Shown in pieces: positions 39,101 to 48,100 of a stretch of 64,000 bases of DNA; position 1 is the stretch's first letter; every line of letters starts with the position of its first letter. This DNA comes from Escherichia coli (GTDB lineage: Bacteria > Pseudomonadota > Gammaproteobacteria > Enterobacterales > Enterobacteriaceae). The position numbers were made by a program. The stretch lies in the NCBI RefSeq assembly GCF_003018255.1, contig NZ_CP027440.1. One strand, written 5' to 3'.

Positions 39101-42100
39101 GTTTATTCACTCTATACGCCATCAGAGCAGTTTTATCCGCCTGGCGCACCAATCCCGTGGCCATCAGATACCGTTCCGTCTGGCTATGCCCTGATGCAGG
39201 GGCAGACTTTTGACAAATCTGCATACCCGAAACTTGCAGCCGCTTATCCGTCAGGCGTGATCCCTGATATGCGTGGCTGGACGATTAAGGGCAAACCTGC
39301 CAGTGGTCGGGCCGTATTGTCTCAGGAACAGGACGGCATTAAATCGCACACCCACAGCGCCAGCGCATCCAGTACGGAATTGGGGACGAAAACCACATCG
39401 TCGTTTGATTACGGCACTAAATCCACGAATAACACCGGGGCGCACACGCACAGTGTGAGCGGTACAGCCGCAAGTGCCGGAAACCATACTCATAGTGTCA
39501 CAGGCGCATCAGCAGTCAGCCAGTGGTCACAAAATGGGTCAGTACATAAGGTAGTGTCTGCGGCCAGTGTGAATACAAGTGCTGCAGGAGCGCACACTCA
39601 TAGTGTCAGCGGCACAGCTGCATCTGCAGGTGCTCACGCACATACTGTCGGTATTGGTGCTCATACGCACTCTGTTGCGATTGGCTCACATGGACACACC
39701 ATCACCGTTAACGCTGCTGGTAACGCGGAAAACACCGTCAAAAACATCGCATTTAACTACATTGTGAGGCTTGCATAATGGCATTCAGAATGAGTGAACA
39801 ACCACGGACCATAAAAATTTATAATCTGCTGGCCGGAACTAATGAATTTATTGGTGAAGGTGACGCATATATTCCGCCTCATACAGGTCTGCCAGCAAAC
39901 AGTACCTATATTGCACCGCCAGATATTCCGGCTGGCTTCGTGGCTGTTTTCAACAGTGATGAGGCATCGTGGCATCTCGTTGAAGATCATCGGGGTAAAA
40001 CGGTTTATGACGTGGCTTCCGGCGACGCGTTATTTATTTCTGAACTCGGCTCATTACCGGAAAATGTCACCTGGTTATCCCCGGAAGGGGAGTTTCAGAA
40101 GTGGAACGGCACAGCCTGGGTGAAAGATGCAGAAGCAGAAAAACTATTCCGGATCCGGGAGGCGGAAGAAACAAAAAACAGCCTGATGCAGGCAGCGAAT
40201 GAGCATATTGCGCCACTTCAGGATGCTGTGGATCTGGAGATCGCAACGGAAGAAGAGGCGTCGTTGCTGGCAGCATGGAAGAAGTATCGGGTGTTGCTGA
40301 ACCGTGTTGATACATCAGTAGCACCGGATATTGAGTGGCCTGCTGTCCCTGTTATGGAGTAATCGTTTTGAGATACGCCGCATACACGTTGTATGCAATA
40401 ACGTGCTGCGGCTTGGTAAATTTTAGCTAGTTTCAGCAGGAGACATAAAAAACTTCAATATAAGATTAAGCATCACGTATTGCCAATCTGATTTTTGACT
40501 GATACCAATTGGGGCCTTCTGCAATTATTTCTTCCTCAACATGCATGATGGGATGCATTTCAATTTCAGAGTTTTTGACTTTTAGATCTAGTCCATATTT
40601 TTTTGAAATTTGTAAAACTTCATTTTTGAAATCCTTATCTGCGAAAGGTGAAATCCTTATTTCTTCCAACAGATTGTTAAGAGATACAGGGACTAGTTTT
40701 CCCTTTACAGGTGGAGTGTTAAAGGTATTCTCTTGAAAAATAGCTCTAAACTCTTTTTCGTATTCGAAAGATGGTCTCTTGTTAAAGAATACATCTGATT
40801 CTGGATTGTATTGTTTTATCCAGAAATTTTTGACGTATTTTACGTGTTTTAATTGTAGTTTGTTTAAATTATTATTTTCAAGTTGGCTTTGGAGGTTTTT
40901 TTTCTTTGATTTTATGACAACGCCTTTAGCGGGGTTTTTACAATACAGCTTCCACATAGCTTCAGATTCATGTTCGTTACAATGCCAGCAACTTATATAT
41001 GTCCTCTCGCTTATTTCCTTAAGTGTCTTTAAATTGAATGCCATGAAAGGATCTAAGTCCATGCCGGCACCATGAGTAGCGCATAGTTTTTCCTGTGTCT
41101 CAATGAATTTTTTATAGCCAGTATGTCCCCAAGCAAATTCACCTTCGAATGGATCTTCAAAATTTTTTGCTGAGCAAAAAAATAAAGCATTTTGTTCGAG
41201 TAACATAGAGAATTTCTCTATGTCAAGGTATCGCCATATATACTCAGTGTGCATGATAGCTCCTTGCAATATAACTATTTCTATCTGTTCATTTGTACTT
41301 AAAAAGGATTGAGTAGCCTGAACAGTTCTATCCGTAAATATACCAGATAGAAGAGTTGTACAATAACAAATCCTCCGTATAAGAACCAGCCATAATAGTC
41401 TGGTTCTTAAGGTTTTTTTTTGTTCGAGGGGGGGGGGCTACGATTCGTCCCCATATCGGCGATAAATTAGGCTTGTACCAACGCTTCTGTTTCTGTGAGT
41501 GAAATCTGATAGCGTTTTACTGCCTCAGCAAAGGCGTGCGCGGCATCTGCATTTGATACCATATATTCTTCAGTTACCCCTGTTTGAGAATGGAAAGTAA
41601 TATTTCCATAAATGCAAATAGGGATTTGGTAGTTGTCTTTAAAACGACGGTCTGGTGAGCCATTCTTATTCGTTTTCGCCCATGTATAACCATCTATGCG
41701 TGAGTCACTGGGAACACCTTCTTCCTCATGGAATCTTAGATATTCTGAACTAATTTGTAATTCGCGTAAATCAATCAGAGCGAATGCTCCATCAGCTCGT
41801 GGTATGACTGCAACTCCAGGATAAAGCAAAATATCGTCTCCATTTACATTTTCAAACCTCATCGCACGCCCTGTAAATTGAATGAGATCCGTTGAACTAA
41901 AATCAAAGGTAACTGGGTGACGATTAACAGACCGGGTTGCTAATGTTCTTTCAGCAAACTGGTCTGTAGCTTTATCTGCAGTAATATCCCATTTTTTGAC
42001 ACTCGATTTTAACATATCAAATGCATGGACCATCGCTGCATATGCGCGCTGTGAAGCATCACTGCTCTCGAATGTTATGGCTATTTTTGTGCTGTCTTCC

Positions 42101-45100: not shown

Positions 45101-48100
45101 GTATGCATGCTGGGTGGGGAAAGTATGAAGGAAAAGAAGACTGCCGCGCCGTTTGTCGTCACATTTATCTTCATTGGCTATGCAAGTCGTAATACAAGGT
45201 GGGACAAAACAGAGACACATAAGGTCTCACAAAGGTCTGCAAGGCCTCACATGTATTGAGATGTTAATAAAATGTAGACTTGTAATTTGGATATAAATGG
45301 TAGAGAAAACCTTTCCCCAAAATAAAAACGAACGTCAATGAAATCAAACGGTTGAATAAAGTTGATTTTGGCTAATAAAAAGACAATAAAATAATTTTTA
45401 TCATTAAATATCAATGAATTGAACTTAATGTTTTTATATACTGTTACGCCATATGGGCTGGACTGAAGCCGCAGACCTGATTGTTAAAGGTATGGAAGGC
45501 GCAATCAACGCCAAGACTGTAACCTATGACTTCGAACGTCTGATGGAAGGCGCTAAACTGCTGAAATGCAGCGAGTTTGGTGATGCGATCATCAAGAACA
45601 TGTAATCTCTACATGTGTTAAATATTGAAACGGGCGTATAACACGCCCGTTGTTTTATTTATGTGGATATTATTAATAGCATGTCGAGCATATTTATATG
45701 AAGCCCATTACTTGAGTCCATATGGGCATATTTTTATAATACAACTATTATGCAAACATTTATTTGGTATTTCGCTTTCTCCAGGAGGACACTCTTGACT
45801 GCTTTTGAGTAAACTCCATAAATCCTTGTTAAATGGTGCGATGTTATAAATAGTAATAGGGTATTCTTTATCCTTAAGGATAATACCAGACTTAACCGGT
45901 GTAAATATACTTCCAGGAGGGAGAAATATAGTAGATTGATACCAGATGATCATTTTCATATCACCCCATATGGCTGAAAAAGATATGCCGCATGTAGGTT
46001 GAATTAACGTGTCAATTACTATCCACTTCATTTGTTATGTCTTATCCCACGGTATTTAATATAGTTCATTAGGATGTTCATTTCTTGATTTTGCATATGA
46101 GTATATTATCCCCTCAAAAATATTAATTAAAAATTAAAACCGTTGCCTATATAAAACAAAATTTAAAGCAAGAAATCTCAATAGATATTAAACAAAATGA
46201 TATTTAGTGAAAACAATAAATTATTCACTTCGTTTTAGATTTGTTTAGCTATAATGTTATACATTCAAATGACTGAACATCATGTAATTAAAACATAGCC
46301 TTTATGCTACTTTGTGCCAATTTGCTAAATATTATGGTTGCATTTTTATATAACGATAATAATGAATATAAGCATGACATGAGAATAAGGTTTCAATTTT
46401 TGAGTTATATAGGAATGGTTAAACCCGTTCCTGACTAAAATACATATAATCGGATGATGACTAAACCAAAACACATGTGCGTTAAGTATTGAAACGGGCG
46501 TATGGCACGCCCGTTGGTTTTATAAATATGTTAACCGTTATAAAATAACGTATAGAAAGTCAAGTGATCACATTTCAAATATCAAGTTGATAGTATTGGC
46601 CTGGTGATTATTTATGGGTGGCAATAAAAAGACAGTATTTATCATCCATAGGGATAGTCTCTGCACTTTTATTTCCATTATGCTAATGTCTTACTGAATT
46701 ATGAAGCATTTTTTAAGCATCCAACTTTAGCTAGATTAATGGTTTATTATTTTCTACATCTTCAATATATAAAAGCGTATTATCAATGGCGTAGTAACTG
46801 CGTTTGTTATGATTAACATCAGTAACCCACCGGAAAACGCCCGCGTCTGCCAGTGTTGAACAGTACTCCCGAAATGTAGATTTTCCGGAAATATGAAGCA
46901 ATGCGGCCTCTTTTATTTTAGCAGGGTTCTTTTTCGTACTAACTTTTAACAGGTTCCTGGTTCCTCTTAATAACAAAACCGTGTCATCGTGAGTAATAAT
47001 TCTGATGTTATCCGTAGCCAGATAATAAATGTAATGTGCAACACGGTGATGTTTTAATTCTGAATAAAACCAGGAGAAGTTTTGCTCTTTTCTCACTTGC
47101 TCAAACATCTTTTGAAAAACAACGACCTGATCCATCAGGATAATAACCTCTTGTTAGTTGTGAGACTGCGTAGTGTGCACGATCGGTTTTACCACTTCAA
47201 TCTGGTCTGTCCTTTGGCTGTGATATGTACAAAGTGTGAAAGGGGGATTACCTGAATTCTCCCGGTGAGCATTTTGCAACGGACCAGCTCCGGTACAAAA
47301 GCTGTTGTGGGTTCAGATTATAAGATTCTGTCTAAGGGGCGGGATAAAGGTGAAATTAGGGGGCATGAAAGATGACTTTATAACCTTGCTCACCCCAGTG
47401 TTGTAAAAGTTCGTTTTGCCTTCTCGTTGGTGCCATGCCTGTCCAGACAATCAATGTTTGCGTCGGGAACAGTTCCGGGCGCGGCGATTCAATGGGATCA
47501 GCAAGAACAGAAATGTGCCATCCTGACAATGATAAACGCCATGCTTCCAGCCACAATCGTGCTCTCTCTTCAACATTCCACGCCATCAGAATGGCTTCTT
47601 TACCGGGCTTACGGCGCATTTCGAAAAGTGAGGCTGCTGCGTATTCAATTAATGCGCCGTCAAACATACTGCTCATAATGCGGGAGGTGTTGTGATCAAG
47701 CACGAGACGCTGGCGAACAGGAAGGTAAACATGATTAATCAATTGATCTACTGGGTACTCTCGACCCAGTGAAATAATTCTCGCGCGTAGTTTGGCAGGA
47801 TTAGCCATACGAAGAATTGACATCATCTCTTCTTGCAGGCGACTCCAGTCATCTTCCGTATCCTGGCTGGTGGTTTCCAGTAATGCTTTAACTTTGCCTA
47901 CAGGAACGCCATTACTTATCCAACGCTTGATCTCTTCGATGCGTTGTATGTCTTCTTCATCAAAGAGTCGGTGTCCGCCTTCACTGCGCTGTGGTTTTAA
48001 CAAACCGTAGCGGCGTTGCCAGGCCCGGAGAGTGACAGGATTAATCCCGCAACGTTCAGCAACATCACCAATGCTGTAATAAGCCACAATTCCTCCTTGC

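Follow-up and report, generated by a model that had tools for sequence, protein, structure and literature searches.

Introduction

Defence hotspots within prophages and the dispensable b region of phage lambda are already known, and they provide the closest comparisons for the region considered here: positions 40363-45440 of a 64,000-nt stretch of Escherichia coli DNA (contig NZ_CP027440.1, assembly GCF_003018255.1; the whole stretch is hereafter termed the window), in which four AT-rich genes, named A to D, lie between the tail fibre assembly gene tfa and a displaced fragment of the host gene icd. In lambda, the cargo of the b region is non-essential and includes defence-type genes, and the landmarks run in the same order as in the window: the 3' end of tfa, a non-coding linker (X), a conserved right boundary (Y-left) and the attachment site. 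The differences from lambda lie in the contents and the insertion point: A-D are unrelated to ea47, ea31 and ea59, the second of two cargo slots holds two tandem single-gene cassettes, and the attachment site is of the phage 21 type, at icd. The pinE-mcrA-attR end of prophage e14 offers a second likeness: in an e14-like prophage, X is again found after pinE, and mcrA holds this position in the e14 of K-12. Phages P2 and P4 likewise carry rapidly exchanged anti-phage cargo at fixed positions of a temperate-phage backbone (PMC9122126), in another phage family and among other backbone genes; the P2 hotspot between G and FI, occupied by fun(Z), is bounded by the junction hairpin and the 'box' of the region described here, the former on its left and the latter on its right. 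To explain exchange at these hotspots, cos-proximal and homologous recombination have been proposed, with no mention of a hairpin or inverted repeat (PMC9122126).

Our reading, to which we assign a probability of roughly 70%, is that these genes occupy the b-region accessory hotspot of a prophage inserted in icd and that the likely role of this cargo is to protect the lysogen against other phages. The original prediction of a variable b region that serves as a landing site for accessory and anti-phage cargo is borne out by other prophages, in which the same flanks hold restriction-modification (R-M) with PD-T7-1, Ppl, McrBC or sitABCD. The searchable literature yielded no description of a two-slot b-region hotspot, and no earlier account was found of the two-slot homology map that places a Septu-like pair of lambda in slot 2, of the hairpin-delimited layout shared with P2, of the family of C as a defence-island GIY-YIG nuclease, or of standalone DUF3800 and DUF4236 cassettes.

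A two-slot hotspot with exchangeable cargo

Four genes had been placed between the last tail gene and the icd fragment, and the listing of open reading frames (ORFs) agrees: all four are intact, with A and B on the minus strand and C and D on the plus strand. Their low GC content is confirmed (0.32-0.44 over 40250-45500 vs 0.47-0.62 in the tail genes at 36250-40500, in 500-nt windows), as are their separate upstream regions, the intergenic gaps being 212, 445 and 493 nt. The claim that they have no lambda counterpart stands for the proteins and fails for their positions, which are exactly the slots of ea47 and ea31/ea59. Mapped on the compared loci and on lambda, the layout reads tfa with a repeat termed D1, slot 1, X, slot 2, Y and attR. 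Slot 1 (40415-42813) carries A and B where lambda carries ea47, and slot 2 (43038-45051) carries C and D where lambda carries ea31-ea59. Between the slots lies X (42814-43037, plus strand; lambda 24162-24351). The right boundary of slot 2 is Y-left (45052-45259, plus strand; lambda 27320-27464, and found also in phage 21), which opens with the junction box ACTTCCGCTTTTCGCTCATAACAGAC; it is followed by Y-right (45260-45436, plus strand), the phage arm of attR, which is confined to icd-integrating prophages. Within Y-left, a minus-strand terminator-like hairpin lies at 45212-45228, and the homologous piece of phage SfII is annotated 'terminator'.

BLAST searches of complete E. coli genomes found the 5-kb cargo to be mostly rare and the two short non-coding pieces to be very common; phage records with X number 170, and those with Y-left 75. 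On sequence comparison, the backbone elements that flank the slots are conserved across lambdoid and e14-like prophages regardless of attachment site. The start of X is D1 copy b (42847-42882) and its end is the first copy of the junction hairpin described below. D1 copy a (40378-40413, 36 nt, plus strand), the left boundary of slot 1 just after the tfa stop, is hairpin-capable (CCGCATACACG...CGTGCTGCGG) and 81% identical to copy b, and a D1 pair also surrounds lambda ea47 (lambda ~22570-22606 and 24161-24197). The D1 pattern, CCGCAg.CACG...CGTGCTGCGG, is a second kind of boundary repeat, found on both sides of slot 1. X holds no conserved ORF among the compared loci: as a small gene it was rejected because the 44-aa ORF called by PGAP is broken in relatives, and as a structured RNA because RNAalifold gave no covariation on either strand.

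Between the same flanks, other prophages hold at least nine distinct cargo sets. NT1F31 carries a LEM-3-like GIY-YIG gene and a type II R-M system in slot 1, and in slot 2 a match (E 3e-156) to PD-T7-1, whose defence activity has been validated experimentally (10.1101/2022.05.12.491691). In FG31-1, slot 1 holds a 410-aa hypothetical protein, of the size and position of lambda ea47, together with a LEM-3-like GIY-YIG protein, and slot 2 a lipase-family protein; the e14-like CH4790 has a 165-aa protein and Ppl (E 5e-157) in slot 2, and ECO8855 combines A and B in slot 1 with two unknown proteins in slot 2. Both NU14 and 536 carry sitABCD and then X, followed by an unknown protein in the former and by GNAT/HTH cargo in the latter, and in SCEC020026 McrBC adjoins attR, preceded by the remnant of a pin-type recombinase. 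The two slots assort independently: of 5426 complete E. coli genomes, 121 carry A and B, 30 carry C and D, and 30 carry all four. Each gene is found elsewhere without the other three, frequently with known defence genes as neighbours; this occurrence apart from one another supports the view that they are independent single-gene cassettes, the 'single-gene morons' of the original prediction. None of the four is a structural or housekeeping gene, and the locus varies across related prophages.

Lambda itself has ea47 in slot 1 and ea59/ea31 in slot 2, where ea59 matches PtuA, the Septu ATPase (E 5e-184), and PDC-M01A, and the HNH protein ea31 matches PDC-M01B. Lambda 24509-26973 is accordingly listed here as a Septu-like two-gene system in the slot equivalent to that of C and D.

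The four cargo genes

That none of the four carries the signature of a well-known defence system holds for B, C and D, which correspond to no validated system and gave no full-length match when all four proteins were run through PADLOC; it holds less fully for A, which matches the candidate PDC-S31 and belongs to the family of the validated system Aristaios. NCBIfam returned no match for any of the four.

Gene A encodes a DUF2971 protein of predicted ADP-ribosyltransferase fold. DUF2971 has been assigned to the superfamily of ADP-ribosyltransferases, close to DarT and AbiGi, its conserved features being a Tyr and an ExE motif (PMC12522546), and Aristaios, a lactococcal DUF2971 protein, is a validated single-gene abortive-infection system (PMC11381338). 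The lengths first given for B, C and D (400, 209 and 244 aa) are correct; the 267 aa given for A correspond to its longest ORF (40466-41269, minus strand), which begins at a TTG. The preferred start is the ATG at 41254, 5 nt after AAGGAG at 41265-41260, and gives a 262-aa protein at 40466-41254 (minus strand). A homologue, 81% identical, on another phage contig is also a 262-aa ORF from an ATG and occurs there without B, C and D; the 246-aa version of A called by PGAP drops residues that are aligned by PHROG and PADLOC profiles. Residues 105-175 match Pfam DUF2971 (PF11185, E 7.8e-6), four PADLOC PDC-S31 profiles are matched (best E 1.3e-20) along with phrog_34615, and YEKEFR at residues 170-175 is the predicted ExE motif (motif III; E171 and E173 in the numbering of the 267-aa ORF), read against PMC12522546. 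The likeness to Aristaios and PDC-S31 is that of a single-gene DUF2971 protein with PDC-S31 profile matches; Aristaios is 316 aa long against the 262 aa of A, and its link to A is known only through the shared Pfam family. PDC-S31 is itself a computational candidate, for which a literature search found no published validation. Sequence and profile searches of the PDB were empty for both A and B. From its family and motif, A may act as an abortive-infection effector of the ADP-ribosyltransferase type.

Gene C (43115-43744, plus strand, 209 aa), in a cassette of ~43016-44080 with a promoter-like site ahead of the gene at 43056-43085, encodes a GIY-YIG nuclease of a rare family, with 72 clusters from Gammaproteobacteria, Betaproteobacteria and Firmicutes. 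Across 44 homologues, Y85, Y99-I-G101, R109, H114, E165 and N177 do not vary, and the structure model (predicted local distance difference test, pLDDT, 90) has the GIY-YIG fold, with I-TevI and T4 EndoII among its nearest folds. With the GIY-YIG defence nucleases (PD-T4-3, and the fold relatives T4 EndoII and R.Eco29kI) C shares the fold, the catalytic set, the single-gene arrangement and defence-island neighbours, which in its homologues include a type I R-M system with an McrBC-like pair, Mrr, HNH and HEPN. No conserved partner gene emerged, the neighbours of C homologues being without mutual similarity. C would be an endonuclease acting against invading DNA and, as no methyltransferase partner accompanies it, one that is modification-dependent or infection-activated. 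Its cassette, with the junction hairpin, recurs in another enterobacterium, where it follows an HNH_2 gene immediately downstream of icd (3902-4630 of that locus), and, without the other three genes, in one E. coli strain, within an unrelated integrase island beside kinase, FRG and helicase genes (4977-6041 of that locus).

Gene D (44238-44972, plus strand, 244 aa from a TTG start) lies in a cassette at 44066-45071, which contains the best promoter-like site of the region (44172-44199, TTGTAA-16-TATAAT). The protein is predicted to have the RNase H-like nuclease fold of DUF3800 (PF12686, E 7.3e-7) and may act as such a nuclease. Its N-terminus, MNIYIDES, is common to its homologues; D6, Q141 and D144 are invariant, E7 is conserved in at least 90% and D110 is conserved, so that the N-terminal DE and the QxxD are intact. 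These two motifs are the signature of the RNase H-like DUF3800 family, and D has them and the domain in common with type VII retrons and with accessory proteins of Cas12a2/type VI-F systems (PMC7736814, PMC10910872, PMC12669027). In contrast to those retron and CRISPR effectors, D stands alone, with no reverse transcriptase, CRISPR locus or Rfam DUF3800 RNA nearby: a type VII retron was looked for, and 40363-45440 holds neither an ORF of reverse transcriptase size nor a reverse transcriptase annotation, nor any RNA in Rfam. A DUF3800-associated non-coding RNA near D was rejected on the same Rfam result and on the extent of nucleotide conservation given below. The contexts of D homologues share no conserved partner: in an Edwardsiella tarda prophage the homologue (80%) lies in the early-left region (5001-9125) beside a pair of SIR2_2 and DUF87 (HerA-like) genes, in Serratia it is beside VapBC, and in Neptunomonas it follows a DUF2971-like gene. 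Nucleotide similarity to the Edwardsiella copy extends 143 nt upstream and ~100 nt downstream at the same identity as in the coding sequence, and to the Serratia copy over the coding sequence only. The Edwardsiella locus also has a variant junction hairpin at ~6176, between the D homologue and the SIR2_2/DUF87 pair.

Gene B (41467-42669, minus strand, 400 aa) begins with DUF4236 (PF14020, E 5.6e-21, residues 3-56), to which the family record attaches no function, and continues with a variable Pro-rich linker, a coiled-coil hairpin and a large conserved C-terminal module with alpha/beta and beta-rich parts, in which W227/D228 and G277/D279 are among the conserved residues. Homologues over the full length occur in Serratia (87% identity) and in Alphaproteobacteria (65-69%); clustered at 50% identity, the family defined by the last 300 residues comprises ~2900 clusters. 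AlphaFold models residues 130-400 with confidence; the matches in structural searches were confined to coiled coils and DUF4236 proteins (only the latter with Foldseek against AFDB50), and proteins annotated with a bacterial SH3 domain (SH3b) are among the structural relatives. At a Klebsiella prophage end, B stands alone beside tail-spike genes. The protein may be linked to the cell envelope.

Between A and B, at ~41381-41420 on the plus strand, lies an intrinsic-terminator-like hairpin with a T-run (AAGAACCAG...CTGGTTCTT; repeat D4). Opposed to both genes, it could block read-through from the late operon antisense into B.

A conserved hairpin at cassette junctions

Similarity between loci begins or ends at a motif of 15-20 nt, GTGCCAGnAGCnGAC, which within the window occurs only at 43012-43035 and 44057-44080. 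The hairpin to which it belongs has the stem GTCCGCTT/AAGCGGAC and the loop TGTGCCAG, and both copies in the window, on the plus strand, have an eroded left arm: copy 1 (43012-43035, GGCTGCTA-T-GTGCCAG-AAGCTGAC) retains 5/8 pairs, and copy 2 (44057-44080, GGCAGTTG-A-GTGCCAG-AAGCGGAC), between the C and D cassettes, 4/8. IMG/VR was scanned for the 15-mer of the hairpin, the left arm being no part of the selection. Among the 116 distinct sites recovered, the left arm was complementary at six or more of its eight positions in 54, where 0.49 were expected (binomial P ~2e-95), and 47 of these 54 stem-bearing sites lay outside any ORF of at least 100 codons; the sites without a stem lay mostly within long ORFs and are therefore considered chance matches. 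Variants of the arms keep their pairing (e.g. GCCCGCTT/AAGCGGGC and GTCTGCTG/AAGCAGAT). The junction hairpin is a real, conserved structured element. It is not in Rfam, and no description of it was found in the searchable literature; identification with a sigma-54 promoter or a Pin/Gin recombination site was rejected on spacing and position. It may act in recombination, at the RNA level or by binding a protein.

Hairpins of this kind delimit cassettes of one to four genes in either orientation, the orientation of the hairpin following that of the backbone. In IMG/VR, a D homologue (91%) is flanked by two intact hairpins, and the D cassette of the window (44066-45071) aligns with its IMG/VR counterpart from within the hairpin loop to the box of the next junction. 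P2-like phages show the order G, hairpin, dGTPase-type cargo, hairpin, FI; in P2 itself, 61 nt separate gene G from the hairpin that follows it, and fun(Z) has a related box on its right. Of 61 hairpin loci, 15 had a tail-fibre or sheath homologue within 3 kb, compared with 2 of 59 hairpin-less loci, the latter counted anywhere in the locus.

The conserved flanks and the junction hairpin may let cargo swap by recombination. More speculatively, hairpin and box might be the sites of an undescribed cassette-exchange mechanism common to lambdoid and P2-like temperate phages, integron-like without a resident integrase, by which single-gene defence cassettes are shuffled between phages and genomic islands; we put this forward tentatively, as possible rather than probable. 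Like integron cassettes and their attC sites, the units comprise one to a few genes in either orientation, are bounded by imperfect, covarying hairpins, and show cassette identity that starts inside the site. The resemblance is one of layout only: the hotspot has no integron integrase and no attC consensus (R''/R' core), it is the loop TGTGCCAG that is conserved, and the arrays lie in phage backbones.

A doubtful alternative is that the hairpin is an RNA-level element that processes, stabilises or terminates the late transcript from the tail-gene strand, rather than a recombination site, and that cassette boundaries coincide with it as the ends of backbone units. Such a role would fit a hairpin whose orientation tracks the backbone strand whatever the orientation of the cargo, and whose position past gene G of P2 is upstream of the annotated terminator of the V operon. 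It would fit less well with the lack of a T-run, with the presence of the hairpin at internal junctions between one cassette and the next, with the start of D-cassette similarity within the loop, and with the movement of the hairpin along with cassettes into non-phage islands.

Prophage context

The window covers nearly the whole of a prophage in icd, with phage-21-type integration and a lambda-type tail. Positions 1-807 are 97.8% identical to xis and the start of int of phage 21, and 45055-45658 are 92% identical to the DNA directly downstream of int in the phage 21 record; the tail genes and tfa are lambda-like, 39700-40411 being 93% identical to lambda 21895-22606. Together with an intact portal gene (22738-24339), these matches indicate that the prophage is nearly complete. 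The last structural gene, tfa (39778-40362, plus strand), is the left anchor of the hotspot, and its coding sequence contains a full-length Rfam IS009 match (203 bits, 40121-40319). On the attR side, the displaced 3' fragment of host icd (45437-45605, plus strand) is followed by the icd terminator (45629-45651) and then by iraM, ycgX and bluR. A second icd-like pseudogene fragment lies beside xis at the left end of the prophage (~453-616 of the window, mapped onto the phage 21 record M61865).

The locus at 39700-46100 is matched at 100.0% in E. coli JNE23-011 (NZ_AP045067.1), where PGAP labels read DUF2971, DUF4236, hypothetical and DUF3800, followed by the icd fragment, iraM, ycgX and bluR. 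In that prophage the portal gene is interrupted by an 11-kb insert (~10170-20880), which lies outside the window and encodes an integrase, a BRO-N protein, an Icd-like protein, a primase, a single-stranded DNA-binding protein (SSB), a major capsid protein, a decoration protein and a small terminase subunit. It looks like a capsid-forming satellite of the phage-inducible chromosomal island (PICI) type within its potential helper.

Weighing the evidence for defence

At least one of the four genes is probably a defence gene, with A and C the foremost candidates, then D, then B; the slots are often filled by proven defence systems in other prophages, and the enzyme signatures of the cargo are of a kind common among immune effectors. 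As single-gene cassettes, A and B in slot 1 and C and D in tandem in slot 2, they would probably be expressed in the lysogen from promoters of their own. Promoter-like sites lie upstream of B, C and D, and the same scan found no canonical terminators downstream of any of the four. A number of observations weigh against our reading. Firstly, the 22 promoter-like sites found represent no enrichment over the 17 +/- 3.6 expected in shuffled sequence and are absent directly upstream of A. Secondly, no immunity or antitoxin gene is evident for the three predicted toxic enzymes. Thirdly, C has no PADLOC match, the PD-T4-3 profile included, and PDC-M04A matches residues 1-37 of D only (E 6.5e-5), with D falling outside PDC-M04. 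Fourthly, non-defence cargo (sitABCD, GNAT acetyltransferases, the lipase-family protein) also occupies the slots, so that position by itself is no proof of defence. Finally, B matches no PADLOC defence model and is a single-gene insert among ordinary chromosomal genes in Serratia and Phaeobacter, and long members of its family carry a C-terminal SH3b domain (7 of 18) or PG_binding_1 (1 of 18).

These last domains bear on a further, rather unlikely explanation, namely that B, and possibly all of slot 1, is lysogenic-conversion or envelope cargo (excluding superinfection at the cell wall, for example, or assisting lysis) and not an intracellular immune effector. The SH3b proteins among the structural relatives of B, the tail-spike genes that adjoin it in Klebsiella and the missing PADLOC match are in keeping with such a role. 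However, the E. coli protein has no signal peptide or transmembrane segment, as judged by eye from its sequence, it lacks SH3 and PG-binding domains of its own, and the fold search gave coiled-coil matches only.

It is improbable that the cassettes are primarily selfish mobile units, in which C, as a homing-type GIY-YIG endonuclease, and D, as an RNase H-fold nuclease, would each aid their own spread into conserved junction sites and benefit the lysogen only incidentally. I-TevI and T4 EndoII are indeed among the folds nearest C, and the cassettes of C and D are found again, precisely bounded, in unrelated settings: a non-lambdoid integrase island, an island next to icd in another enterobacterium, the early region of the Edwardsiella prophage and an IMG/VR contig. 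Yet most cassettes bounded by hairpins code for proteins other than nucleases or for known defence proteins (dGTPase, PD-T7-1, Ppl), which implies that a nuclease is not required for cassette mobility, and the family of C is found in classical defence-island neighbourhoods.

Very improbable, lastly, is an arrangement of A+B and C+D as two-gene systems of toxin and partner instead of four single genes: A and B do occur together in 121 of the 122 E. coli genomes with any match and lie on one strand, along which no terminator is evident between them, and a DUF2971-like gene directly precedes the D homologue of Neptunomonas, but the linked A-B copies in E. coli are 98.7-100% identical in nucleotide sequence, as fits a single recent unit, B occurs without A and A without B outside E. 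coli, C and D each occur elsewhere without the other, the neighbours of C homologues are mutually dissimilar, and A shows hardly any similarity to the DUF2971 protein of Neptunomonas.

Implications

On our preferred reading of the region as a b-region accessory hotspot, the region offers concrete single-gene defence candidates in all four genes, among them a new GIY-YIG family in C, what would be a standalone DUF3800 nuclease in D and a very large family in B. That the b region of lambda has the same two slots, one of them holding a Septu-like pair, ties this classical 'non-essential' region to immunity. The junction hairpin provides a possible mechanism for the turnover of prophage cargo, and a sequence tag with which cassettes can be mined from lambda-like and P2-like phages. 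If hairpin and box are indeed the sites of a shared exchange mechanism, among the cassettes exchanged would be P2 fun(Z) and other classical morons, the b-region genes of lambda, and C and D, and ORFs bounded by hairpins would be a direct route to new anti-phage genes, with the 2900-cluster family of B among the candidates.

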